Below, in pieces: positions 25,227-57,673 of a DNA stretch of 64,000 bases. Made by a program: the position numbers and the translations under genes. Within the stretch, counting starts at the first letter, position 1; each line of letters begins with the position of its first letter. The stretch is from Nitrospiraceae bacterium (GTDB lineage Bacteria; Nitrospirota; Nitrospiria; Nitrospirales; Nitrospiraceae). Where the stretch lies: contig JBFWWG010000005.1 of assembly GCA_050246315.1 (NCBI GenBank), positions 242,359-306,358 of the forward strand, in the 5' to 3' direction. The notes beneath the pieces are model-generated. The model saw only the letters and a list, made by a program, of their open reading frames with translations. It was not told where the DNA came from and did no database searches.

Positions 25227-26498
25227 ATGAATAGAACCTCGCAGAACTCCACAGATCGCCTCCGGCAGGCTTTGCGGGAGAAATCGCGTGAAGTGGAGGT
25301 GCTTCATCGCATCAGTGATTCCATCAGCAACACGCTGGATCTCGAATCCGTCCTGAAACACATCGTGGATGTGGTGGTGGAAGTCACGAACGCCGACGCC
25401 TGCCTCCTGTATTTGTTGTCGACCGGCAAGGATGAACTGGTGCTTCGCGCGTCCAAGAATCCCCACCCGAGGTTGATCGGCCGCATTACCCTCGGTTTGG
25501 GCGAAGGCATCACGGGCTGGGTGGCTCGGGAGCGCACGAGCGTGGTGATCCCCAACAACGCAAGCGACGACACCCGGTTCAAGGTATTTCACAACCTACC
25601 TGAAGATCGGTACCAGGCGTTCGTGTCGGTGCCGATACTGACGAAGAAGGAAGTGGTGGGTGTCATCAATGTCCAACACAAGCGTCCCCGCCGCTATCAG
25701 GCGGACGAGTTGGCGCTCCTGACGACGATCGCCAACCAAGTGGGCGGGGCCATCGAGAACGCGCGGCTCTATGATGAAATGCGGAGGAAAGTCCTGCAGG
25801 TGGATACCCTCTCTCAGGTCTCGGAAACGGTGACGTCCAACCGGTTGATTGAGGATATCTTTCAGTTGATCGTTGCCATGGTCGCGCAATTGATGAACTC
25901 CAAGATTTGCTCGATCATGCTCTTAGACCACGGCAAAGGTGAACTGCGCATCGTGGCCACACAGAGTTTGAGCGAGGCCTACCGCCGGAAGCCGAACCTG
26001 AAGATCGGCCAAAGTATCAGTGGCCGGGCCGTGCAGGAACGCCGTCCCATCATCGTGCCGGACGTAACCAAAGAACACGACTATATGTTCCCGGATATCG
26101 CCAAGAAGGAAGGGCTCTGCTCACTGCTGTCCGTGCCCATGCTGGTAAGGGAGAAGGCGCTTGGTGTGATCAATACCTACACGTCGGTCCCCCACCACTT
26201 CACAGTTGAAGAAACCAAAGTTGTGCAAGCCATTGCCAATCAAGCCGCGATCGCCATCGAGCATACAACGTTGCTCGACAAGTCGTTTGAAATGCAAGAA
26301 GCGTTGGCGGTGCGGAAGGTTGTGGAGCGTGCCAAGGGTTACCTGATGCGAACGCGAAGATTGAGCGAGGAGGAAGCCTTCCGCCTGATTCAGCGTCAAA
26401 GCATGACCTTGCGTAAATCGATGCGCGAAGTCGCCGAGGCGATTCTTCTCGCCGGGGAGATCGAGGAACAGGCTGCCGGAGGACGCAAGCTCCCATAA
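25227..26498 (+). CDS. GAF-GAF-ANTAR transcription antitermination regulator
   Basis: Two GAF repeats (LGEGITGWVA...SVPI...VGVINV; IGQSISGRAV...SVPM...LGVINTY) and a C-terminal ANTAR domain RKVVERAKGYLM...SEEEAFRLIQRQSM..RKSMREVAEAIL. Confidence 0.92.
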   Translation: MNRTSQNSTDRLRQALREKSREVEVLHRISDSISNTLDLESVLKHIVDVVVEVTNADACLLYLLSTGKDELVLRASKNPHPRLIGRITLGLGEGITGWVARERTSVVIPNNASDDTRFKVFHNLPEDRYQAFVSVPILTKKEVVGVINVQHKRPRRYQADELALLTTIANQVGGAIENARLYDEMRRKVLQVDTLSQVSETVTSNRLIEDIFQLIVAMVAQLMNSKICSIMLLDHGKGELRIVATQSLSEAYRRKPNLKIGQSISGRAVQERRPIIVPDVTKEHDYMFPDIAKKEGLCSLLSVPMLVREKALGVINTYTSVPHHFTVEETKVVQAIANQAAIAIEHTTLLDKSFEMQEALAVRKVVERAKGYLMRTRRLSEEEAFRLIQRQSMTLRKSMREVAEAILLAGEIEEQAAGGRKLP

Positions 26499-27513: not shown

Positions 27514-28560
27514 CTAGCGCTTCGTGGATTCCTGTCCGGATGCAGGGGGCGCGGTTCGCGGCGACTGTTTTCGGGATCCGGAGGACCCGCGCTGTTGGAT
27601 CGTCAGCTCTTTCAGCTCTTGCTTCAGCTGGCTGATCTCACTCCGCATCCGTTCAAGTTCCAGATCTTTCCTCACCACCAAGTCCTTCAGTTCGCGGACC
27701 TCTTCGACCGTGGGGGCCGCCGCCGAGGGGAGTGATTCCGAGAGGCCGGCCGTGGGAACTGGGGCGGAGACTGGTGGGTCCGCCACTCGAGGAAGGGCTT
27801 GGTAGTCCACGGCCACCGATGGCAGATCGGCCGGCAACGGTAACACCACCGGACGAGACAGATCCGTCCGTAGGGCGGAGGCCGGCGAGAATAGCAGCGT
27901 CCGGCCGGCGAGGTCTTTTGAGTAGGCCTGAGTAGAGTCAATCGCACGGAGCGGGTCGGGGCGGCCGCGGTATATGGTTAAGATGATGTGCAGGGTCCGC
28001 GAACGCACGTACAGGGCGCCTGCGGTTTCTTCCGCTGTCGGGCCGATCCGTGATTGCGCTGCATCGATGTCTGCGGAAGATCCCCGGCTGGATGAAGAAT
28101 TGACGGATGAGGTCAAGATCCGAAAGCTGACAAACTGATCGGCTGTGGCCGAGGAGAGGGCGGTGCTGATCAGCGGAGCAAGAAACTGCGCATCGTCGGG
28201 AGAAAGGACCGGAATGACGGGTTGCCGGTCGTTTGTAGTGCCAGGCGTGGTGTTCGATCTCTGCTGCCCAAGCGAAAGGCCGCTCAAACTGGCCTGAATG
28301 ACCGAGGATTCCAGAATGATCGGGTGAGAAGCCTGGAGGCCGGTCACCGATCGAAATCCGGCGGTGGAGCCCCGTTGGGGAACAGTTTCAAGGATGATGG
28401 ATCCTCTTGGTCCGTCGTACAGCATGATTGGCTTCGGCGACAACAGTCCGCAGCCGGTCATGTGGGCGACGAGGCAGGTCATCACCATCAGGATGGCCCG
28501 AGGGAGAAGAGGATGATCCTTCTGTGAGCGGGTTTGAGTGCGGATACCCAACTGATTCAT
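27514..28560 (-). CDS. Hypothetical lipoprotein with C-terminal coiled coil
   Basis: Long ORF, lipobox-like MTGC, paralogous to the adjacent ORF (ASHPIILE / AAHPIRLD); start uncertain. Confidence 0.7.
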   Translation of the reverse strand: MNQLGIRTQTRSQKDHPLLPRAILMVMTCLVAHMTGCGLLSPKPIMLYDGPRGSIILETVPQRGSTAGFRSVTGLQASHPIILESSVIQASLSGLSLGQQRSNTTPGTTNDRQPVIPVLSPDDAQFLAPLISTALSSATADQFVSFRILTSSVNSSSSRGSSADIDAAQSRIGPTAEETAGALYVRSRTLHIILTIYRGRPDPLRAIDSTQAYSKDLAGRTLLFSPASALRTDLSRPVVLPLPADLPSVAVDYQALPRVADPPVSAPVPTAGLSESLPSAAAPTVEEVRELKDLVVRKDLELERMRSEISQLKQELKELTIQQRGSSGSRKQSPRTAPPASGQESTKR

Positions 28561-28688
28561 AGCGTTCCGAGAATCGACGGTGCAAACCGACGTCCGAACG
28601 CAGGCTCTCTTCGGATGAAGGACCGAGGTGCCTTCACAGGAGGCAAGGGCAAACAGACGGTTGCAGGAAGGGAGCTGATGCCGGATCA

Positions 28689-29630
28689 TCATTCACGCGG
28701 CCTCGATGTGGGTTGTTTCAACTCTTGCCGGATCGATTCCACCTCCTTTTTCAAGGCGTCGATCTCTTCGTTCTTCTTGTTCAGGTCGGTACGAATCTGT
28801 TGCAACTCCTGTTCGTCGTCGGCTGTCGGCTGGCGCTGGTCCTTCAACTCTCCTGCTCTGTCGGACGCTGGTCCCCCGGCTGTCGCCGATCCGGCAGCGG
28901 CCGATCCATCGGTGCCCGGCAGTGTGGCGAGCATTTCGTAATCAATCACAAACGTTGTGTCGGGTGTCGCACCGAACAGTCTGTGCTTTTTCTGGTGGTT
29001 CGGTTTCAATGCTGCGTCAGGCACAAAAGCCAAGACCTTATCCCCTAGGCCGGATGTATCCGGCACACGGCGATTAGCCATGTTGATGGAATCGGCTCGC
29101 TCAGCTCGCTTCCGATAACGGGACACCGTGAGGCGCAGGGCACCATCAGTAACCAACAGATGGCCGGATGTGGTTTCGAGCAGGGTTGATTCGGCGAGCG
29201 GTGGTTCGGAGGAGCCAACTCCCGCTCCTCCCCGGCTGGCATAGGACAGGGTTGCAGGATAGTTGTGCACCCGAAATCCGACTTGCTGATCAGGAGCAGC
29301 CTGAGCCAACGCGCTCGAAATATAGGGGGCGATAAATCGGATGTCCTCGTCAGAGAAGGCCCGTTGTCCCGGAGGGGTCTTGGCAAACACCCGCTGCATC
29401 GTCGTCGATTCTTCTCGCGCGATGACCCCCTGAAGAGCCCGCGTAATCAACTCCGCATCCAGCCGGATCGGATGAGCGGCTTGAAATGAACGGTCGGGAT
29501 TGCGCTCCAGATAGACCGCCCCCTTAGGGGCCTCGTGAATCATGAAATCGATATCCGAGGTTGTGGCGCACCCGAATGTGAGCAGGCATGAGACGACCAA
29601 GGTTGCAACGGGGATTGATCGCGGCGTCAT
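28689..29630 (-). CDS. Hypothetical lipoprotein with C-terminal coiled coil
   Basis: Signal peptide ending LTFGC; paralog of 27514-28560; start may be 29669. Confidence 0.75.
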   Translation of the reverse strand: MTPRSIPVATLVVSCLLTFGCATTSDIDFMIHEAPKGAVYLERNPDRSFQAAHPIRLDAELITRALQGVIAREESTTMQRVFAKTPPGQRAFSDEDIRFIAPYISSALAQAAPDQQVGFRVHNYPATLSYASRGGAGVGSSEPPLAESTLLETTSGHLLVTDGALRLTVSRYRKRAERADSINMANRRVPDTSGLGDKVLAFVPDAALKPNHQKKHRLFGATPDTTFVIDYEMLATLPGTDGSAAAGSATAGGPASDRAGELKDQRQPTADDEQELQQIRTDLNKKNEEIDALKKEVESIRQELKQPTSRPRE

Positions 29631-29756
29631 GGATGCCAGTCCTTTATGGCGGTTTTTCGGTGGCCACATGGTGATGGGCGGCAGTGTAGCACAGGACCTG
29701 CGTCCCTCCTACTGGGTCGAGACGGGGCCGGCCTCGATACATTGGGAGAAAGACTC

Positions 29757-29786
29757 TTGACAGATTTCTCTCAAAACGCCTATAAA
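29757..29786 (+). promoter_or_regulatory. Candidate sigma70-type promoter of the urea operon
   Basis: TTGACA-N18-TATAAA just upstream of leader 1. Confidence 0.65.
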
Positions 29787-29811
29787 CCTTCTCCAGATCA
29801 TTGTGGGGTCT

Positions 29812-29910
29812 TAGAACAACGAAGTTCTACGGTCCCTCAGCCTTAGTGAGCGAAGGACAATGGCGTCCTTTTGGTCCATGACAATAATGGACCGGAAGGG
29901 CGTTTTTTTT
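29812..29910 (+). promoter_or_regulatory. ANTAR-type dual-hairpin attenuator (leader 1)
   Basis: TAGAAC-AACGAA-GTTCTA and AAGGAC-AATGGC-GTCCTT; the second overlaps a 17-bp terminator stem (29863-29903) with a T8 run. Confidence 0.85.
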
Positions 29911-29972: not shown

Positions 29973-31364
29973 ATGAGATGGGCACTGAAGTCTGGGGTGT
30001 GGGTCGGGATCGTCGGGCTGGTGCTTGCCGTGACCGCACCGGCGGCGTTTGCCGAGGAACCGGCCGGACAGTCGACCGGAGGGGGACGCCTAACCCGTGA
30101 GCAGGAGCAACCAATTGCGCATCTCTGTGCGGGGTGCGTGGCGCCGATGTTTACCGACGGCAGTCAGGGGAAGATCGTACCGTACGGACGAATCGAATTG
30201 GACGGCATCTACAGCACCAGAAACACCAACCCTCTGGATCCCCAGCAGTTCAACGGCTATGGGACGGCGGCAGGTCGCCAAGAGAACAGTAGCTCGACCT
30301 TGAATCCTCGCTACAGCGTGTTCGGCCTTCGTGCCGACCGGACCGACGGGACGAATTCCCTCACCGGCGTGGTCGAGGTGGATTTTTACGGGCAGAGCGA
30401 CAGCGGCAATAACTTGCTGCCCCGCCTGCGGCTCGCCTATGTGAAGTACTCTCCCAACAACAACCGGACTCTCTTCACCATCGGTCAGGATTGGAATCCG
30501 ATCATGGGGTTGCTGACAGATAATATTGACTTTTCCATCATGGGCTACACGGGCAATCTTTGGCAGCGTATTCCGCAAATCACCGTCAAGCACAACTTCA
30601 CGGAAAACTTTGAAGGGCTGTTCACGGTCATGCGCTTCGAGCGCGGCCTGTCCAACTGTTGCGGCAACACGCAGATCCGGCCGACGGATGCCGGTTTTCA
30701 GGGCGGCGGGCCGGGCAGCACCGCTTCGTTCAACGATCCCGTGCAGATGCCGTACTTCGGCACCAGGTTCGCGTATCATGGAACGGACAATCTCGCCGGG
30801 ACCATGGTGGCCGCCAACGTGGCCTATCGCTGGTACCGATCTGCGCCCATTCCGTTCAATCCGCTGGTCGGGGCTGCCTTCCAATCGGGGCAGAACATCA
30901 ATTCGTATCTTGTCGGGGTTGAAGCCGTGCATCAGATCACCAAGCAACTGAGATTCTCGAGCGAGATCTCATACGGGCAAGCGCTCGGCAACGAGTGGTT
31001 CAGGTGGAACCAGGATCTGAACTGGTTCACCGGAGAGGAGGTTCGGACTCTAACCGGGTGGGTCCAATTGAGCTACGCCCATGCGTGGGACTATACCTTT
31101 CTCGCCGGGTATGGATGGGACAATCCGGTCGATTCGGATCTGCGCGGCAGCATCAATGCCTATGGGGCGGGCGGCGTGAACTCGAACATACAATACCAGT
31201 CCAACCAGCGGACGTATCTGACCGTGATCCATCCCGTGTGGGCGGATCTGATCATGGGCTTCGAATGGCAACACTTCTGGACGAATTGGGCCCAGCCGAC
31301 GGGGTTGGCGTCCCAGCGCTTTCAGGCGGACATGTTCACGCTGTCGGCCTGGTACAACTTCTAG
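29973..31364 (+). CDS. Putative outer-membrane beta-barrel porin (urea operon)
   Basis: Signal peptide, VEVDFYG and RLRLAYV porin-like strands, C-terminal WYNF. Confidence 0.75.
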   Translation: MRWALKSGVWVGIVGLVLAVTAPAAFAEEPAGQSTGGGRLTREQEQPIAHLCAGCVAPMFTDGSQGKIVPYGRIELDGIYSTRNTNPLDPQQFNGYGTAAGRQENSSSTLNPRYSVFGLRADRTDGTNSLTGVVEVDFYGQSDSGNNLLPRLRLAYVKYSPNNNRTLFTIGQDWNPIMGLLTDNIDFSIMGYTGNLWQRIPQITVKHNFTENFEGLFTVMRFERGLSNCCGNTQIRPTDAGFQGGGPGSTASFNDPVQMPYFGTRFAYHGTDNLAGTMVAANVAYRWYRSAPIPFNPLVGAAFQSGQNINSYLVGVEAVHQITKQLRFSSEISYGQALGNEWFRWNQDLNWFTGEEVRTLTGWVQLSYAHAWDYTFLAGYGWDNPVDSDLRGSINAYGAGGVNSNIQYQSNQRTYLTVIHPVWADLIMGFEWQHFWTNWAQPTGLASQRFQADMFTLSAWYNF

Positions 31365-38286: not shown

Positions 38287-40010
38287 AGCTCTCCCGCCGT
38301 CAGTATGCCGATCTCTACGGCCCGACAACAGGAGACCGGATCAGACTGGCCGATACCGAGCTGGTGATCGAAATCACCCGCGATCTCACGATGCCGGGGG
38401 AAGAAGCCAAGTTCGGTGGAGGGAAAGTCATCCGTGACGGAATGGGGCAATCGCCTGCTGCCACGCGTGCCTCCGGTGCTTTGGATTTGGTCATCACCAA
38501 TGCCGTCATTCTCGACTATTGGGGGATCGTCAAGGCGGACATCGGGGTGCGCGACGGGCGCATCGCCGGAATCGGGAAGGCCGGCAATCCGGATCTCATG
38601 GACGGGGTGACTCCCGGCATGGAGATTGGTCCTGGGACGGAGGTCCTTTCCGCTGAGGGAAAGATCGTCACAGCCGGCGGCATCGATACCCACATCCACT
38701 TCATTTGTCCTCAGATCATCCATGAAGCGCTGGCGAACGGACTGACAACCCTGATCGGAGGCGGAACCGGTCCTGCGACCGGAACCAACGCCACCACCTG
38801 CACGCCGGGAGCGTGGAACATTCATCGGATGCTGGAAGCGGCAGACGGTTTCCCCATCAATCTTGGCTTTCTGGGCAAGGGCAATGCGTCGCTTCCGGAA
38901 GGGTTGCGCGAACAGATCGAGGCGGGGGCCATCGGGTTGAAGCTGCATGAGGATTGGGGAACGACTCCGGCCACCATCTCGACCTGTTTGGATGTGGCAG
39001 AGGAGTACGACGTCCAGGTGGCGATCCACACGGATACCCTGAACGAAGCCGGTTTCGTCGAGGATACGATCAAATCGTTCAAGGGGCGCACGATCCATTC
39101 GTTCCATACGGAAGGAGCCGGCGGTGGGCATGCGCCGGATATCATCAAGGTCTGCGGCGAAGCCAACGTGCTCCCGTCGTCAACCAATCCCACCATGCCC
39201 TTCACCGTGAACACGATGGACGAGCATCTCGACATGCTGATGGTCTGCCATCATCTGAATCCGAGAGTGCCGGAGGATATTGCCTTTGCCGAATCGCGCA
39301 TCAGACGAGAAACCATCGCGGCCGAGGACATCCTGCACGACATGGGAGCGATCAGCATGATGTCGTCGGATTCGCAGGCGATGGGACGGGTCGGTGAGGT
39401 GATCATTCGGACCTGGCAGACCGCGCATAAGATGAAAGTCCAGCGAGGGGGGCTCGCGCCGAACGGTGCCGCTGGTGGCACGGAACGGCATGATAACTTC
39501 CGAGCTCGCCGCTATGTCGCCAAGTACACGATGAATCCTGCCATCACTCATGGCATCGCGGATGAAGTGGGGTCGATTGAAAAGGGCAAGCTGGCCGATC
39601 TTGTTCTGTGGAAACCGGCCTTCTTCGGCGTGAAACCGGAAATCGTGATCAAGGGCGGTTTTCCGATGTCGGCCGCGATGGGCGATCCCAACGCCTCGAT
39701 CCCGACTCCGCAACCGGTCCTGACCAGACCCATGTTCGGGAGCTTCGGCCGGGCGCCCTATACGACCAGCGTCACCTTCCTCTCCGCGCGCGCGTTGGAA
39801 CGGGAGGTGCCGCAATCATTAGGACTTCAGAAACGGGTCGCGGCCGTGCGGGGTTGCCGAGGGATCAGCAAACGAGACATGAAGCTCAACGATGCCCTGC
39901 CTCGGATCGAAGTGGATGCGGAGACGTACGAGGTCCGCGCGGACGGTCAATTGCTCTCTTGCGATCCGTTGGCGGTGTTGCCGATGGCGCAACGGTATTT
40001 CTTGTTTTGA
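38283..40010 (+). CDS. ureC: Urease alpha subunit
   Basis: [38 protein letters not shown]. Confidence 0.98.
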
Positions 40011-42333: not shown

Positions 42334-42363
42334 TTGACAGATTCTTAGGGAGGCTGTTATAAG
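42334..42363 (+). promoter_or_regulatory. Candidate sigma70-type promoter of the nadE block
   Basis: TTGACA-N18-TATAAG with an extended -10 TG. Confidence 0.65.
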
Positions 42364-42379
42364 TGCGTCGAACATCCGA

Positions 42380-42475
42380 AGACAACGGCGTCTGACTGGA
42401 TGATCTGACACCATATCAATGAAGGACAACGACGTCCTCTTTCCCCAGCGATGGGGATTGAGGGCGTTTTTTTTT
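42380..42475 (+). promoter_or_regulatory. ANTAR-type dual-hairpin attenuator (leader 2)
   Basis: AGAC-AACGGC-GTCT and AGGAC-AACGAC-GTCCT; the second overlaps a terminator stem (42432-42467) with a T9 run. Confidence 0.85.
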
Positions 42476-49866: not shown

Positions 49867-50244
49867 CAGAATGTTGAAAACGTGCACGCGAAGCGGCGCG
49901 GCTCTGAAACAATTGTTCCGATCGCCGAGAGCCAATCGAGGCGTGATCGGTCCACACGACGTGAGATAGGTACCCCCCTGCCTCCTTGCTTGCCGCGGCC
50001 GCGCCTGTGGAGAGCCAGGTCCCGAGTGATCGATGGCGAAGTCATCGGAGTGTGGGCGGGTGGGACGGATACGTCGGGGTCGGGCGACGGAGGTGGCGGC
50101 GTTTTCGAACGTCCTGCAACCGGACGGCAACATTTGCGGGAGCCACGGCGGCGTTTTCTGCCAGCAGCGAGTGACCAACGTTTCTTAACCACCGAGCAGT
50201 TCTGGCAACACCGTTTCAGCCAGTGACCTGAAAGGAGGAAGGGG

Positions 50245-51654
50245 ATGACAGCGAAGGAAGTATTGGAATTTGCAAAGAAGAATAAGGTGGCCGTGGTCGA
50301 TCTGAAGTTCATCGACCTGATCGGCACCTGGCAGCATTTCTCCATTCCGGTGGAGGAAATGACCGATGGGCTGTTCAAGGATGGTTCGGGATTCGACGGC
50401 TCGTCGATTCGTGGGTGGAGAGCCATTAACAATAGCGACATGCTGGCGATCCCCGATCCCAAGACGGCCTGCATGGACCCCTTTGCGGCCGTGCCGACCT
50501 TGAGCTTGATCTGTAATGTGTTCGATCCGGTCACCCGCGAGAACTACGATCGCGATCCCCGCTATATCGCGCAAAAGGCCGAGCAGCACCTGAAGAGCAC
50601 AAAGATCGGCGACGTATCCTACTGGGGACCCGAGGCGGAGTTCTTCATATTCGACCAGGCGCGCTACGACCAGACCAGCCACAGCTCGTACTATTTCATT
50701 GATTCGGAGGAGGGGATCTGGAATGCCGGGCACGAAGGCGTCAATCTGGGGTCCAAGATCCGCCATAAGGAGGGCTACTTCCCGGTCGCCCCGACGGATA
50801 CCCAGCAGGACATCCGCAGCGAAATGATTCTGGAGATGCAAAAGGTCGGCATGATGGTCGAAAAGCATCACCACGAAGTCGCGACGGCCGGCCAGGCGGA
50901 AATCGACATCCGGTTCGACACGTTGCTGTCCACGGCCGACAAGATGATGATGTACAAGTACATCGTCAAGAACGTTGCCAAACGCCATAACAAGACCGTC
51001 ACCTTCATGCCGAAACCGATTTTCGGCGACAACGGTTCCGGCATGCATACCCATCAGAGCATTTGGAAAGAAGGAAAGCCGCTGTTCGCCGGAAAGGAAT
51101 ATGCCGGGATCTCCCAGATGTGTCTGTATTATATCGGGGGCATCCTGAAGCACGCCAAATCCTTGGCGGCGCTCACGAACCCGACGACGAACTCGTACAA
51201 GCGGCTGACACCCGGATTCGAAGCCCCGGTGCTGCTGGCCTATTCGAGCCGAAACCGATCGGCTGGGATTCGAATTCCCATGTACTCGCCGAGCCCGAAG
51301 GCCAAGCGGATCGAGGTGCGGTTTCCCGATCCGACGGCCAACCCATACCTGGCCTTCTCGGCCATGCTGATGGCTGGACTAGACGGGATCGAGAATAAGA
51401 TCAATCCCGGAGAGCCGGCGGACAAGGATCTCTACGACCTGGAGCCGGAGGAGGCGGCAAAAATTCCAACCATGCCGGGCAGTTTGGATGAGGCGCTGGC
51501 TTCGCTCGAACGGGACCATGAGTTCTTGTTGAAGGGCGGGGTGTTCAGCGAAGACCTGATTGAATCCTGGATCGCCTACAAGCGGGCGAAGGAAGTCGAT
51601 GCGATGCGGCTCAGGCCCCATCCATACGAGTACTTCCTGTATTACGACGCGTAG
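50245..51654 (+). CDS. glnA: Glutamine synthetase type I
   Basis: [32 protein letters not shown], adenylylation-site DLYDL. Confidence 0.98.
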
Positions 51655-51689: not shown

Positions 51690-51719
51690 TTGACGGTTGG
51701 CTCGAGTGCGTGGTATAAG
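51690..51719 (+). promoter_or_regulatory. Candidate sigma70-type promoter of the cyanate operon
   Basis: TTGACG-N18-TATAAG with an extended -10 TG. Confidence 0.65.
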
Positions 51720-51741
51720 CCGATCTTAAGAGTCGAACTAG

Positions 51742-51939
51742 GACAACGGCGTCGCTGGGACGACTCTCATAAATGGGTTAACGGACAACGGCGTCCGTCA
51801 TTCTGGAAAGAGTGGCGGACGCCGTTCGATTTAGGGGTTACGACGAGACGGGGCGGTCTCGGACGAGTGTCAGACAGCATCTGGTAGGACAATGGCGTCC
51901 TCCGTTCCCGTGAATGGGAATCGAGGACGCTTTTTTTTT
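51742..51939 (+). promoter_or_regulatory. Tandem double ANTAR-type attenuator (leader 3)
   Basis: Four hexaloop hairpins (AACGGC, AACGGC, GGGGCG, AATGGC); competing 18-bp stem at 51787-51826; terminator 51895-51930 plus T9. Confidence 0.85.
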
Positions 51940-52005: not shown

Positions 52006-53331
52006 ATGAGCGATGACAGGGGAGGGTCAGGTCAATCCGAAGCAAGCCGGTCCGGTGTGCCACGACTCTCATCCGAGGAGTATTTCGAGCGAACCGTGAC
52101 GGCATCGGTGGCCGATGCCGTCCTCAAGAGCGCCGGTCCGTCGCGGCGCGGGCTCCTTGCGGCGCTGGGAGCGACGGCGCTGATCGCGTTCATTGAAAAT
52201 GTCTTGCCGCTGCGAGAGATCGTCGCGCTGGCCGCAGATCCGATCGGGAAACCGGAGAAGAAGGATGTGAGCGTGGGCTTTATTCCGATCACCTGCGGGA
52301 CGCCCATCATCATGGCCGAGCCGCTTGGCTTCTACAAGAGGCATGGTCTCAACGCCTCGGTGAAGCGAGCTGCCGGCTGGGCCATGATCCGCGACTGGGC
52401 GATCAACGGGGAGGTGGACGCCGCCCATATGCTGACTCCGATGCCGCTGGCCATCACCTTGGGGGCCGGCTCCGTTCCGACGCCCTTCTATATGCCGGCC
52501 GTGGAGAATATCAACGGGCAGGCGATTACGCTGCATATCAAACATAAGAACGTGAAGACGGCGGCCGACATGAAGGGCTTCCGGTTCTGTGTGCCGTTCG
52601 ATTTCTCGATGCACAATTACCTCCTGCGTTATTTCTTGGCCGAAGGAGGTCTGCATCCGGATAAGGATGTGCAAATTCGAATCGTGCCTCCTGCCGAGAT
52701 GGTGGCGAACCTGAAGGCCGGGAACGTGGACGGCTACCTGGGGCCGGACCCCTTCAATCAACGGGCGGTATACGAAAATGTCGGCTACATCTTCAAACTC
52801 TCCAAGGAGATTTGGGACAGGCACCCCTGTTGCGCCTTTACGGTGTCGCAAGAGTTCGCCGTACGCCATCCCAACACCTTCGGGGCGCTCTTGCGCGCGA
52901 TCATCGATGCGACGCACTATGCCTCGAACCCCGCACATCGTAAAGAAATCGCCGCGGCGCTCGCGCCGACCAACTATTTGAATCAGCCCGTCACCGTCCT
53001 GGAACAGGTCCTGACCGGTACCTACGCGGACGGATTGGGCGCGATCAAGAAGGAGCCGAACCGCATCGACTTCGATCCCTACCCCTGGCATTCGATGGCC
53101 GTTTGGATTCTCACCCAGATGAAGCGATGGGGCCATCTGAAAGCGGACGTCAACTACAAGGCCGTGGCCGAACAAGTCTATCGAGCCGCCGACTGCGATC
53201 GGGTTGCCAAGGAGTTGGGCTATCCCACGCATGCGAGCACGACGACGAAACACATGATCATGGGCCGTGAGTTCGATCCGCAGCAGGCGGACGCGTATGT
53301 GAAGAGCTTCAAAATCCACGGGATGGCGTGA
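52006..53331 (+). CDS. cynA: NrtA/CmpA-family ABC substrate-binding protein, probably cyanate (CynA)
   Basis: Tat-like SRRGLL; GFIPITCGTP, ENINGQAI, FSMHNYLLRY; upstream of cyanase. Confidence 0.85.
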   Translation: MSDDRGGSGQSEASRSGVPRLSSEEYFERTVTASVADAVLKSAGPSRRGLLAALGATALIAFIENVLPLREIVALAADPIGKPEKKDVSVGFIPITCGTPIIMAEPLGFYKRHGLNASVKRAAGWAMIRDWAINGEVDAAHMLTPMPLAITLGAGSVPTPFYMPAVENINGQAITLHIKHKNVKTAADMKGFRFCVPFDFSMHNYLLRYFLAEGGLHPDKDVQIRIVPPAEMVANLKAGNVDGYLGPDPFNQRAVYENVGYIFKLSKEIWDRHPCCAFTVSQEFAVRHPNTFGALLRAIIDATHYASNPAHRKEIAAALAPTNYLNQPVTVLEQVLTGTYADGLGAIKKEPNRIDFDPYPWHSMAVWILTQMKRWGHLKADVNYKAVAEQVYRAADCDRVAKELGYPTHASTTTKHMIMGREFDPQQADAYVKSFKIHGMA

Positions 53332-53376
53332 TCCAAGCGTGAGCAGGACGTGACGGTTGGAGGAGGCGACCAAGAG

Positions 53377-54360
53377 ATGCTGACGGAAACAGCGGTGGCA
53401 AGCGGCGAATCGGTCAGTGTCGATACCCCGGGACGGCCCGCCCCGGCAGCCAACGGCAAGAAGGTCCGTTCCATGGCCGGGCAGACGGGCGGCAATCCGT
53501 GGGTAATTTCAGGGTTCCTCCTCTTTCTGTTCCTTCTGGGGTGGCAGTTCTTCACGCTGCGAGCCCCGTTTGATCCGAAAGGGATGACGGAGGAGCAGCT
53601 TCTATTGATGGAGTTTAATGGGGATATCGTTCGCACGGAGAACAACACGTATCAATGGAACCCTGAAAAGGAAAAAGTCAAAGGGGTGCCGGGGCCCTTG
53701 GCCGTGCTGGAGAAGGCACGGACCGAGCTGAGCGAGGCCTTCGTGAAGAAAGGGACGAACGATCACGGGATCGGCTACCTCGTGCTCTACACCGTCGCGC
53801 GGTTCGGGGCCGGATTCCTTGCCGCGTCCGTCGTGGCGATCATCCTGGGCGTGCTGCTGGGGATGAACAAGGTGCTCTTCAAGGCCGTGAATCCCTATAT
53901 CCAGATACTCAAACCGATCTCGCCGCTGGCCTGGATGCCGCTGCTGCTCTATACCGTGAAAGACCCGAAGATGACGGCGGTATTGGTGGTCTTCATGGCG
54001 GCGTTGTGGCCCACGTTGGCAACGACGGCCTTCGGCGTGAACGGCCTGCGCAAGGACTACTTGCATGTGGCGGCGATCCTTCAGTTGTCCTGGGTCAAAC
54101 GACTGTACAAAGTGATCCTGCCCGGCGCGGCCCCGACGATCGTCAACGGCCTGCGAATCTCCTTTGGCAGCGCGCTGGTCGCGGTGGTTCCTGCGGAGAT
54201 GCTGCTTGGAGAACTGGGTGTCGGGTATTTGAGCTGGATCGAGTGGAACAACCTCGATATTTCCGGCGTCATTTTCGCGATTCTCGTGGTGGGCTGTGTG
54301 GGAGTGATCTTGGATTCGGGGTTCAACAAGTTGGCCGGCCTCGTCACCTATCAGGAGTGA
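53377..54360 (+). CDS. cynB: NrtB-family ABC permease (CynB)
   Basis: QILKPISPLAWMP, AEML, WIEWNNL. Confidence 0.85.
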   Translation: MLTETAVASGESVSVDTPGRPAPAANGKKVRSMAGQTGGNPWVISGFLLFLFLLGWQFFTLRAPFDPKGMTEEQLLLMEFNGDIVRTENNTYQWNPEKEKVKGVPGPLAVLEKARTELSEAFVKKGTNDHGIGYLVLYTVARFGAGFLAASVVAIILGVLLGMNKVLFKAVNPYIQILKPISPLAWMPLLLYTVKDPKMTAVLVVFMAALWPTLATTAFGVNGLRKDYLHVAAILQLSWVKRLYKVILPGAAPTIVNGLRISFGSALVAVVPAEMLLGELGVGYLSWIEWNNLDISGVIFAILVVGCVGVILDSGFNKLAGLVTYQE

Positions 54361-54363
54361 GCC

Positions 54364-55209
54364 ATGGCCTTTCTGCAAATCGACAACGTCAGCAAATATT
54401 TTCCTAACGCGTCGGGCGAGGGACGGGTCTGCGTGTTCAAGGATGTCACGATCAAGATCGACAAAGGCGAGTTCGTGACGGTCATCGGCCATTCCGGATG
54501 CGGCAAGAGCACCCTGCTGAACATCATCGCCGGACTGGACGAAGCCTCCGAGGGAGGGGTGTTGCTGGGGGGGCGAGAAGTCACGGGTCCGGGCTTGGAC
54601 CGCATGGTGGTCTTTCAGAATTTTTCCCTGATGCCCTGGATGACGGTGTTCGAGAACATCGCCTTGGCGGTACGATCGGCCTATCCGGACTGGGACCCAT
54701 CGCAAGTGGCGGCCCATGTGAACAAGTACATCGCGCTGGTCGGATTGAAGGGAGCAGAGACCAAGCGGCCGGCTGCCTTGTCGGGAGGTATGAAGCAGCG
54801 GGTCGGGCTGGCACGCGCCTTTTCCATTGAACCCAAAGTTCTGTTGCTCGATGAGCCGTTTGCTCAGATCGACGCGCTGACCCGCGGCGTGATCCAGGAG
54901 GAGCTGATTCAAATGTGGACCGGCTCGAAGAACACGGTGTTTATGGTCACCCATGACGTGGATGAGGCCATCCTATTGTCCGATCGGATCATGCTGATGA
55001 CCAACGGACCGTCCTCGCGGATTGGCGAGATCGTGGACGTCACGATCCCTCGGCCTCGATCGCGAGAGACGATCATCGACCACCCCCACTACTACAAGAT
55101 CAGGAATCATGTGATTCATTTCCTGGTCCGGCATGCAGCCCATGCCGGCGGGGCCGGACCGATCCCCGGCGGCAAGTCTGTCGAGGAGCCGGTTCTGGTT
55201 CGGTTCTGA
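54364..55209 (+). CDS. cynD: NrtD-family ABC ATPase (CynD)
   Basis: GHSGCGKST, LSGGMKQRV, MVTHDVDEAILLSDRIMLMTNGP. Confidence 0.87.
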   Translation: MAFLQIDNVSKYFPNASGEGRVCVFKDVTIKIDKGEFVTVIGHSGCGKSTLLNIIAGLDEASEGGVLLGGREVTGPGLDRMVVFQNFSLMPWMTVFENIALAVRSAYPDWDPSQVAAHVNKYIALVGLKGAETKRPAALSGGMKQRVGLARAFSIEPKVLLLDEPFAQIDALTRGVIQEELIQMWTGSKNTVFMVTHDVDEAILLSDRIMLMTNGPSSRIGEIVDVTIPRPRSRETIIDHPHYYKIRNHVIHFLVRHAAHAGGAGPIPGGKSVEEPVLVRF

Positions 55210-55266
55210 TTGAGGCGGGCGAACAACGCCGTTCCGGCGATGGGCGGCGGAACTGAGGAGGGGCAC

Positions 55267-55707
55267 ATGGATAGGGAGGCGGTACGCAAGACGGTCAGAG
55301 AGAAGCGGATGAAGAAACAGGTCACGATCGCCGACATCGCGAAAACCGTCGGGAAGAATCCCACCTTTGTGGCGGCGGCGCTGAACGGCAATCACCGATT
55401 GACGACGGACGAGGCCAAAAAGGTTGGCGCGCTGTTGGAATTGGACGGCGCTACGACGGAGGCCCTGAGCAAATTTCCCGTCCGAACCGACTATCCGAAC
55501 GCGGCGGATCCCTTCAAGTACCGATTGATGGAAATCATCGGTGTCTACGGTGATTCGCTGCGCGAACAGGCCAACGAAATATTCGGCGACGGGATCATGA
55601 GCGCGATCGACTTCACGATCGACATGGAAAAGGTCACCGGCAGCCAGGGCGAGGCCCGGTGCAAGATTACGCTCAACGGCAAGTGGCTGGAGTACAAGAC
55701 GTTCTGA
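55267..55707 (+). CDS. cynS: Cyanase (cyanate hydratase)
   Basis: DPFKYRLME, FGDGIMSAIDF, TLNGKWL. Confidence 0.95.
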   Translation: MDREAVRKTVREKRMKKQVTIADIAKTVGKNPTFVAAALNGNHRLTTDEAKKVGALLELDGATTEALSKFPVRTDYPNAADPFKYRLMEIIGVYGDSLREQANEIFGDGIMSAIDFTIDMEKVTGSQGEARCKITLNGKWLEYKTF

Positions 55708-55755
55708 TTCTGCGGAGCCGGAACCGTGCGACCTGTTGATCGAGGATCGAGAGCG

Positions 55756-57153
55756 ATGCGAGAGCCGTCGAACGCACCATCCAGTATTGTGACGAGTCGG
55801 GGGTGTCCCGTGGGCCTTGGAACGAGTATCAGGCGTCAACCAGGTGCCGTGCTGGTTAGTCTGGCGGCGATCTGTTGTGTGGTGCCGCCGGGGTTGGCCA
55901 TGGCCCAAGTGCCGGTTCAAGCCGTGACACCGGTCATCAACGAGGCTGACACTGCGTGGGTCCTGGTGTCGTCCGCCTTCGTGCTGGCCATGACCATGCC
56001 GGGCCTGGCGCTGTTCTACGGTGGACTGGTCCGCAGTAAGAACGTGCTGGGGACGATCATGCAGACCTTCGCGGTCGTGTGCCTGGTGAGCCTGTTGTGG
56101 ATGGTTGTCGGCTACAGCCTGGCATTTGGTCCCGATACTCAAGGCCTCGTCGGCAATCTGGACTGGGTCGGTTTGAACGGCGTGGGACTGGCACCGCACG
56201 CGGCCTATGGCCCCACCATCCCGCATCAGGCCTTCATGATTTTTCAGATGATGTTCGCCGCGATCACGCCGGCCTTGATCACCGGAGCCTTTGCGGAACG
56301 GATGAAGTTCAGCGCCCTTGTCCTCTTTACGGGACTCTGGTCGTTGGCGATCTATTGTCCGATTGCACATTGGCTGTGGGGAGGCGGGTGGTTAGCCAAA
56401 TTGGGAGCGCTGGACTTTGCCGGAGGGGCGGTGGTTCATCTCAGTTCCGGCGTGAGTGCGCTGGTGTGCGCGCTCGTTCTCGGCGCGCGTCAGGGATACG
56501 GAACGGATTACCTCGCGCCGCACAATCTCCCGATGGTGCTGCTCGCGACCGGCCTTCTGTGGTTCGGATGGTTCGGTTTCAACGCGGGGAGCGCTCTGGG
56601 CGCGAACGAGACGGCGGTCATCGCTTTCACGGCGACCCATATCGGAGCCGCTGCCGGTGCGCTGGCCTGGTTGGCAGTGGAATGGGTGCATCGCGGGACA
56701 CCAACGGTGCTGGGGATCGCAAGCGGTGCGGTGGCCGGGTTGGCGATGGTGACACCTGGCGCGGGCTATGTGGGCCCAGTTGCGGCCCTGCTGATCGGGA
56801 CGATGGCCGGAGTGCTGTCGTATTGGGCCGTCATGAGCAAGAGCAAGTTGGGTTACGACGATGCGCTCGACGTGGTCGGCATCCATGGGGTGGCCGGGGT
56901 GGTCGGGATGGTGATGACGGGGTTGTTGGCGTCCAAGGCCGTGAACGTCGCCGGGGCGGACGGGCTCTGGACCGGCAACGTGCGCCTCTTCGGGGTCCAG
57001 ATCCTGGCAGTGGTGGCGGTCAGCCTCTTTTCCGCCGTCGGGACGCTGGTCATCTTGAAATTTGTCGATCGTGTCGTCGGCTTGCGCGTGACGCCGGAGG
57101 AAGAGCGGATGGGGTTGGACTTGAGTCAGCACAACGAGCGCGCATATTCCTGA
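55756..57153 (+). CDS. amtB: Ammonium transporter AmtB (copy 2)
   Basis: FQMMFAAIT, DFAGGAVVH, GWFGFNAGS, GIHG; start uncertain. Confidence 0.95.
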   Translation: MREPSNAPSSIVTSRGCPVGLGTSIRRQPGAVLVSLAAICCVVPPGLAMAQVPVQAVTPVINEADTAWVLVSSAFVLAMTMPGLALFYGGLVRSKNVLGTIMQTFAVVCLVSLLWMVVGYSLAFGPDTQGLVGNLDWVGLNGVGLAPHAAYGPTIPHQAFMIFQMMFAAITPALITGAFAERMKFSALVLFTGLWSLAIYCPIAHWLWGGGWLAKLGALDFAGGAVVHLSSGVSALVCALVLGARQGYGTDYLAPHNLPMVLLATGLLWFGWFGFNAGSALGANETAVIAFTATHIGAAAGALAWLAVEWVHRGTPTVLGIASGAVAGLAMVTPGAGYVGPVAALLIGTMAGVLSYWAVMSKSKLGYDDALDVVGIHGVAGVVGMVMTGLLASKAVNVAGADGLWTGNVRLFGVQILAVVAVSLFSAVGTLVILKFVDRVVGLRVTPEEERMGLDLSQHNERAYS

Positions 57154-57315: not shown

Positions 57316-57456
57316 TCCTCACAACGGAGTGAGGATGTAACAGCGGTTCGACACTACAGATCCGGCAGCGCTGTCGGATTGGCTGGCAAAGGCGCCGGCG
57401 GTGAACGAGAAGGGTGATGGTCCACCCTCCCTCGCATCGCGGCGCCTTTTTTGTTT
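57316..57456 (+). promoter_or_regulatory. ANTAR-type attenuator (leader 4)
   Basis: TCCTCAC-AACGGA-GTGAGGA, ATCCGGC-AGCGCT-GTCGGAT, GCTGGC-AAAGGC-GCCGGC; the last overlaps a long terminator stem (57388-57449) ending TTTTTTGTTT. Confidence 0.82.
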
Positions 57457-57483: not shown

Positions 57484-57673
57484 GAGGACAAACACGAGCG
57501 GGGTTTCTCGCGGGCGCCAATGAAGAGGGCTACGCCTGAAGGGCGGCCGGCTCAACCGAAGGTTGGTATGGAGAGTCTGAGGACAATCATGAGAGGGGTT
57601 TCTCGCGGGCGCCAATGAAGAGGGCTACGCCCGATGAGCCGCCGGTTCTAGCAAAGCTTGGTATGGAGGTGAA
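57484..57673 (+). repeat. Tandem direct repeat, 2 x 95 bp
   Basis: 37-bp identical core at 57500-57536 and 57595-57631; flanks align with mismatches. Confidence 0.9.

Follow-up and report, generated by a model that had tools for sequence, protein, structure and literature searches.

Genomic setting of the leader

The nitrogen-assimilation cluster of this Nitrospiraceae bacterium fills part of the window, as the whole 64,000-nt stretch of DNA analyzed is called here. NCBIfam and Pfam matches give the gene order urtABCDE and urease, nadE, amt, PII, glnD, glnA, an ABC transporter of the NrtA/CynA type, and cynS; 3' of cynS lie two further amt genes, a Rieske/cytochrome b/multiheme set, and nirA. 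A double leader lies within the 351-nt intergenic region flanked by the glnA stop (51654) and the start of the transporter genes (52006). The genes on either side of it are as follows:

50245..51654, + strand: glnA, type I glutamine synthetase (TIGR00653 above cut-off)
52006..57153, + strand: predicted regulated operon, whole (NCBIfam, Pfam)
52006-53331, + strand: NrtA/CynA-type ABC binding protein, first gene of the operon, followed by permease and ATPase
55210-55707, + strand: cyanase gene cynS, within the operon and followed by an amt gene ending at 57153

From the neighboring cynS we infer that cyanate may be the substrate of the transporter; the corresponding transporter of Nitrospira moscoviensis is annotated as a nitrate ABC transporter in the supplement rows covered (PMC6606698).

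Three open reading frames in or beside the nitrogen cluster (49882-50226, 29973-31364, and 27514-29669) gave no hit to Pfam or NCBIfam under the thresholds applied; for the 463-amino-acid gene among them, which follows the urea leader, relatives are present in 10 of the 18 family genomes searched. An Rfam match to 5_ureB_sRNA lies above threshold at 38429-38724 on the minus strand, antisense inside the urease alpha-subunit gene, and likely reflects coding conservation.

Two hairpin-terminator modules in series

The leader is composed of a promoter-like site followed by modules A (H1, H2, and T1) and B (H3, H4, and T2):

51690..51719, + strand: predicted sigma70-type promoter (TTGACG, 18-nt spacer, extended −10 TG-n-TATAAG)
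51742-51753, + strand: H1, recruiting hairpin GAC-AACGGC-GTC, with loop AACGGC at 51745-51750
51781-51798, + strand: H2, antiterminator hairpin ACGGAC-AACGGC-GTCCGT, with loop AACGGC at 51787-51792
51787..51833, + strand: T1, terminator overlapping H2, with an 18-bp stem at 51787-51826 and a weak, interrupted U tail
51844-51861, + strand: H3, recruiting hairpin CGAGAC-GGGGCG-GTCTCG, whose loop GGGGCG has G at positions 1 and 4 (G1, G4)
51886-51901, + strand: H4, antiterminator hairpin AGGAC-AATGGC-GTCCT, with loop AATGGC at 51891-51896
51894..51939, + strand: T2, terminator overlapping H4, with a stem at 51894-51931 (−25.5 kcal/mol) and T9 at 51931-51939

The four hairpins, the 18-bp stem, and the T9 terminator had been described in the initial annotation, and all of them were recovered where it had placed them; the present analysis adds a stalk below H1, the promoter-like site, and the lack of a terminator between glnA and the leader. 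The 221-nt leader region folds at a z score of −6.9 against 200 shuffles. A generic promoter and terminator scan called none of the promoter, T1, and T2, its rules being too strict for bulged stems and for a −10 element without the last T, so that confirmation of these features rests on folding and conservation. Conservation was assessed in 80 loci, the best of 449 that encode a relative of the transporter binding protein, with dereplication at 80% spacer identity giving 37 leaders.

The promoter elements TTGACG and TGnTA are unchanged in 20 of 20 aligned leaders, and TTGAC is found at the matching distance in 35 of the 37. H1 caps a longer, bulged stalk (51729-51766), from which 14 nt remain to H2; its loop has A1, A2, G4, and C6 fixed in all 20 aligned leaders, and the stalk presents compensatory changes at 10 of 12 consensus pairs (18 sequences). 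The H2 pattern GGAC-AAnGGC-GTC is fixed in 37/37 dereplicated leaders, with variation at loop position 3 only. The T1 stem, with 16 Watson-Crick and two G-U pairs (−32.9 kcal/mol), takes up the loop and 3' arm of H2, and its tail has four T in the 8 nt after a G+C-rich stem, which bears out the proposed capture of H2 by a long stem with a weak U tail. This tail is the poorest of the 37 leaders (mean, 6.1) and no better than background in a loose genome-wide hairpin-plus-terminator scan. In the 37 leaders, 98.4% of T1 cells are paired, and the variation is almost exclusively G-U wobble on the 3' side; covariation in T1 is not above that of shuffles, because the 5' arm hardly varies. The part of this arm beyond H2 (51793-51803) is nearly constant in the 37 leaders, whereas the same part of T2 varies with compensation. 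A pause signal, a protein contact, or a second pairing are candidate causes of such an extra sequence constraint.

In module B, H3 and H4 of the window are separated by a 24-nt linker (41 nt from loop to loop). The GGAC arm, loop positions A2, G4, and C6, and the GTCC arm of H4 are fixed in 37/37 dereplicated leaders, including the 5' arm GGAC, which is paired in the antiterminator form only. The T2 stem takes up the end of the loop and the 3' arm of H4 and covaries, with compensatory changes at 8 of 14 consensus pairs; the strong T9 terminator that had been described as overlapping the module B hairpin is thus confirmed. A long open reading frame from an ATG in the H4 loop (51892) was rejected as a real start, since the ATG occurs in 13 of 51 double leaders and is in frame and open in the window only.

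A G4-hexaloop hairpin of at least 5 bp is found in the spacer between the modules in 33 of the 37 dereplicated leaders. The corresponding figures are 12 for the reverse strand and, for 100 dinucleotide shuffles, a mean of 6.7 ± 2.1 (maximum, 13). These recruiting hairpins occur in two forms, X and Y, which are mutually exclusive across the 51 double leaders. They were searched for by stem motif alone with any loop of 4 to 8 nt, so that loop size and G4 were not imposed, the motifs themselves being read off the same sequences. Form X, the type of the window, is present in 15 of the 51, 39 to 47 nt before H4, with a hexaloop and G4 in 15/15 and often a further hairpin in the linker to H4. Form Y is present in 33, 23 to 28 nt before H4, with a hexaloop in 35 of 36 motif matches and G4 in 33 of these 35, the two exceptions lying about 60 nt away; its stem covaries, with 33 cells showing double changes, a value reached in 0 of 500 shuffles. 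Three double leaders, that of N. moscoviensis (L026) among them, have neither form. Loop positions 2, 3, 5, and 6 are variable in X and Y. Position 1 of the module B recruiting loop is G in 42 of 50 motif-defined hexaloops and A in six, and A1 is found in 32/35 H1, 37/37 H2, and 33/37 H4 loops. By these alignments, the recruiting hairpin of module B is conserved but relaxed. A quick CynA tree suggests that X and Y are interspersed among relatives.

Conservation of the tandem arrangement

By scripted count, two modules are present in 50 of the best 80 of the 449 loci, and also in the window; 14 loci have one module, and 16 have none. Inspection by eye shows that two of the 14 are double (L037 and L065), one ends with its contig (L028), four keep module A only (L020, L042, L043, and L044), one has H1 joined to a T2-type terminator (L015), and the remainder have a different single module. 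Among the 16 loci with none, eight carry a different single module before a sigma54-activator gene inserted upstream of the transporter, one carries a different single module directly before the transporter, and the remaining seven are truncated or lack a glnA gene at the locus. Relatives with one module only show that the tandem pair is dispensable, and the relatives are not independent, so that these counts overstate the number of events. Both terminators, the four hairpins, and G4 of H3 are conserved, which disposes of the concern raised beforehand that one module might lack conservation. Double leaders also occur without glnA nearby (L065, L079, and L080); glnA is therefore not the whole reason for the doubling.

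Some loci depart from these patterns in their own ways. In L015, a T2-type terminator comes immediately after H1, as would be the case if the sequence between the H2 and H4 repeats had been lost, and L044 has module A and a remnant X hairpin, with H4 absent. The inserted activator gene (L007, L010, L018, L035, L040, L047, L049, and L063) lies between glnA and the transporter, and its product combines AAA+ and Fis helix-turn-helix domains with no Pfam sensor domain (two checked by Pfam). This arrangement suggests a possible ANTAR-to-sigma54 cascade at these loci. In L018 and L035, whole hairpins are inserted in the linker of the single modules.

Other ANTAR-type leaders

The GAC-AAYGRC-GTC hairpin also marks the urea-cluster and nadE leaders of the window and a fourth leader, which lies 3' of cynS:

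29757-29910, + strand: single-module ANTAR-type leader before the urea cluster, with a TTGACA promoter-like site
42345-42475, + strand: single-module ANTAR-type leader before nadE-amt-glnB-glnD-glnA, with a TTGACA promoter-like site
57317-57456, + strand: fourth ANTAR-type leader, after the first post-cynS amt, with three G4 hexaloops (AACGGA, AGCGCT, and AAAGGC)

The fourth leader has one strong terminator with a U tail and precedes a small open reading frame, amt, and the Rieske/cytochrome b/multiheme/nirA genes. The loose genome-wide scan returned 21 matches, and the four with long U tails all lie inside the window. A direct repeat of about 37 to 40 nt, in two copies, is located just past the fourth leader (~57500-57640) and overlaps short open reading frames.

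Within the family, the script found one module in 12 of 17 nadE loci and two in none, and one module in 8 of 12 urea-cluster loci and two in none, an extra call at L117 being due to a first hairpin that pairs into the second. No tandem was flagged among the post-cynS leaders. In other families, two terminators are present in 2 of 11 nadE loci (L099 and L103). These two leaders, from a different family, lie about 180 nt before nadE; no more than three hexaloop hairpins were recognized in them by eye, and the first U tract leads directly into the second antiterminator hairpin.

The predicted regulator

The source genome has exactly one ANTAR match, and it lies inside the window:

25227..26498, + strand: GAF-GAF-ANTAR protein, 423 amino acids from the given ATG (two Pfam GAF domains; ANTAR, E = 4e-20)

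This protein is the predicted cognate antiterminator of both modules of the leader. An ANTAR match is present in 128 of 151 family genomes and the H2/T1 motif in 74, and 72 of the 74 genomes that carry the motif also have the ANTAR match; the two without it (G025 and G122) are drafts of 110 and 260 contigs. In genus g10, the ANTAR match and the leader motif are both present in the identical 7 of 25 genomes. Both are absent from the other 18 genomes of this genus. An ANTAR protein is thus encoded and tracks with the RNA motif, in counts that the relatedness of the genomes inflates. The best PDB matches of the first GAF domain include the conserved-domain protein 3e0y and the GAF domain of PtsP/EI-Ntr (E = 2e-22), which is reported to bind glutamine (PMC4848567, consulted in part). 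This resemblance makes a nitrogen-status signal plausible, and by analogy with EI-Ntr a glutamine-type ligand may be guessed at.

A probable two-step attenuator and its alternatives

We consider it probable that the leader is a two-step attenuator in which each terminator is held open by the single GAF-GAF-ANTAR protein. The conservation of both modules and the single leaders of the urea and nadE genes support the original proposal of two ANTAR-type attenuators in series. Transcripts would reach the leader from its own promoter and by read-through from glnA. With the regulator inactive, likely under nitrogen sufficiency, T1 and then T2 would form, and little RNA would extend into the transporter and cyanase genes. 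With the regulator active, H1 would recruit it to clamp H2, and H3 would then recruit it to clamp H4, so that the polymerase would pass both terminators. The likely role of such a leader would be to keep the operon tightly off while ammonium is plentiful. In constrained folds, T1 no longer forms once H2 is clamped, nor T2 once H4 is clamped; the costs are about 13 and 6.5 kcal/mol, respectively. The terminators are, in this folding model, the default state of the leader.

In the double leaders that adjoin glnA, no terminator-like hairpin separates the glnA stop from H2 (0 of 47). In N. moscoviensis grown on nitrite, the portion of PMC6606698 consulted gives 2,324 RPKM for glnA and 367 to 562 for the next three genes. 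Without a terminator after this highly transcribed gene, the leader must stop the upstream transcript besides its own, and blocking glnA read-through is a likely purpose of the leader. Assembled transcriptome sequencing (RNA-seq) contains one X2 contig that runs from glnA past its stop to 51784 and X6 contigs that cross the leader at flat depth; such contigs show no ends, strand, or level, may hold DNA, and support no conclusion.

In a toy model of two independent and equal switches, the effective Hill coefficient increases from 1.0 to 1.19, the midpoint becomes 2.4-fold higher, and the off/on range is squared. Serial attenuators had been expected to sharpen the response or raise its threshold; in this model the sharpening is slight. 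By the model, doubling would mainly reduce leak and widen the off/on range downstream of a very active glnA and would sharpen the response only mildly. The further suggestion that a higher threshold would rank cyanate use differently from urea use is so far unsupported: the first gene behind the tandem leader of N. moscoviensis on nitrite has 431 RPKM (cynS, 1,731) versus 73 for urtA in the same part of PMC6606698, a comparison that covers one condition and different promoters and does not refute the ranking idea.

The weak T1 tail, the covariation of T1 within the range of shuffles, and N. moscoviensis, which has both terminators and no clear equivalent of H3, stand against the two-step attenuator, as do G1 in H3, linkers longer than those of eut, relatives reduced to one module, and the two motif-bearing genomes that lack an ANTAR match. 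With the poorest T1 tail of the 37 leaders, T2 is probably the main stop in the source genome, where T1 is probably leaky. Taken further, the weak tail would fit a leader in which module B is the only working switch in the source genome, T1 being reduced by decay to a hairpin that causes pausing or shields the 3' end of the glnA mRNA and module A at most concentrating the regulator. The T2 tail is the best possible, and in seven cases an AAC in the H2 loop has its counterpart in a GTT after the T1 stem, which costs the tail one U. The tail strengths of T1 and T2 also trend inversely (rho, −0.25; P = 0.14), a compensation that is not significant. However, the promoter, the T1 stem, H1, and H2 show no defect and agree with the family consensus, the T1 tails of the two nearest relatives (L002 and L003) are richer in U, and a stem of −33 kcal/mol can plausibly terminate in part despite a poor tail, and we regard the loss of T1 as quite improbable.

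The contrast between the A1 loops of H1, H2, and H4 and the mostly G1 recruiting loop of module B raises another reading, which we hold to be unlikely: a coupled, processive track of four hairpins, in which an ANTAR dimer loaded on the A1 hairpins is handed to the weak G1 hairpin H3 and then to H4. Module B would work well only once module A is bound, with true cooperativity in place of independent checkpoints. Successive hand-over between hairpins is proposed in the part consulted of the EutV structure paper (PMC8934654), and the nadE leaders L099 and L103 pair two terminators with only three hexaloops by eye. Against this, the distance from H2 to H4 ranges from 91 to 170 nt, which is loose for hand-over when H3-H4 spacing is tight, and G1 loops are also seen in other families (L100 and L101), in modules that appear to be single. 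If true, the coupled track would be a protein-gated attenuator with true cooperativity and a natural test of the ANTAR successive-binding model, its two interchangeable natural spacings (24 and 42 nt) serving as built-in rulers. A relay through the RNA itself, in which the T1 3' arm freed by clamping of H2 pairs with the loop and arm of H4 and blocks T2 with no second binding event, appears highly improbable. Such pairing is the predicted fold in early transcript snapshots of the window and of 36 of 37 leaders, but it is automatic because H2 and H4 are repeats: cognate and swapped duplexes have −19.5 versus −19.7 kcal/mol (permutation P = 0.68), giving no sign of co-evolution, complete T2 wins in 35 of 37 full folds, and conservation of H3-type hairpins and of the H4 5' arm would be unneeded. 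Finally, T1 is the first terminator downstream of glnA, as it would be if the hairpins were nothing more than common terminators of glnA and random stems unrelated to ANTAR. This is hardly credible given the hexaloop size, the invariance of G4, the fixed spacing, the co-occurrence with ANTAR, the same motif in three other leaders of the window, and the double leaders away from glnA.

Relation to known ANTAR and tandem systems

At the gathering level, Rfam has no match in the leader, and no riboswitch family matches. Module A aligns to the whole P11 model (RF00625) with an E value of 8.9e-5 and 29.4 bits, below the gathering threshold of 70. P11 corresponds to NalA, a leader antiterminated by NasT (PMC11387622 and PMC10783516, consulted in part). 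As in the NalA/P11 leader of Pseudomonas nirBD, the first hexaloop is carried on a long stalk about 42 to 44 nt from the second, loop to loop, the second hairpin (GGAC-AAnGGC-GUCC) overlaps the terminator, and nitrogen assimilation genes are controlled. In contrast, the P11 model starts with a GG/GC sigma54-type promoter, whereas the promoter here is sigma70-like; NalA has one terminator, and this leader has two; and NasT is a REC-ANTAR protein that acts with NasS, as opposed to GAF-GAF-ANTAR.

The eut leaders bound by EutV of Enterococcus faecalis share two hexaloops, each with G4, the second of which overlaps an intrinsic terminator (parts of PMC3369931 and PMC8934654). They differ in that several single modules precede different genes, instead of two in one leader, in having A1 in both loops where the first loop of module B is mostly G1, and in that EutV is kinase activated. 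The linkers of 14 nt (H1 stalk to H2) and 24 nt (H3 to H4) are beyond the 5 to 12 nt of eut and within the 2 to 25 nt accepted in actinobacteria; they resemble NalA spacing. In the part available of the EutV-RNA structure paper, G4 is the sole base-specific contact (PMC8934654), which the relaxed hairpin of module B fits, while the A1/G4 rule, as given in the sections consulted of PMC3369931, has E. faecalis EutV needing A1, and H3 departs from it. The leader has the hexaloops on stems of at least 3 bp, the G4 in all four loops, and the terminator exclusion of the ANTAR dual-hexaloop class, and A1 is found in both loops of module A but not of module B. Given G1 in H3 and in most recruiting loops of module B, this module is a variant and not a strict member of the class.

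The GnfK/GnfR system of Geobacter sulfurreducens also serves a nitrogen regulon with amtB and PII (targets nifH, glnK, and amtB), and its reported site, CAGGCAANGGCGCC, is nearly the H1 consensus; it differs in two-component activation and sigma54 promoters, and the part consulted of PMC2995071 describes no tandem terminators. The closest likeness in layout is to tandem "pseudo-cooperative" riboswitches, such as tandem TPP, in which two complete terminator switches answer one signal and a steeper response is expected (PMC9481103, in part). With an antiterminator hairpin for each of them, T1 and T2 likewise make two complete expression platforms, but the switch is a pair of predicted protein-bound hairpins and no metabolite aptamer.

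We found no published account of two ANTAR terminator modules in one leader, although incompletely visible supplements may list such sites, and no publication on ANTAR control in Nitrospira in a search by title and abstract of a collection with few subscription papers. In the parts seen of two reviews, "tandem" does not occur in PMC12591593 nor "ANTAR" in PMC9481103. Nitrospira gave no match in the visible supplements of PMC3369931, whose hit tables are perhaps incomplete, so that an earlier listing is possible. The ANTAR type of switch is known, and its serial use in one leader, together with the G1 recruiting loop, would be the new aspect.

Significance

Nitrospira are major nitrite oxidizers, and few studies deal with how their nitrogen uptake is regulated. 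The leader suggests that one GAF-GAF-ANTAR protein governs a nitrogen regulon at the RNA level, with at least four predicted target leaders in the window. With their tandem layout and G1 loop, such leaders extend the ANTAR target motif beyond what was known, so that searches for A1/G4 only would miss such sites. The natural single and double versions, with two spacings of the recruiting hairpin, offer a test system for how an ANTAR dimer uses two hairpins, and these versions may also show what doubling a protein-gated terminator buys.
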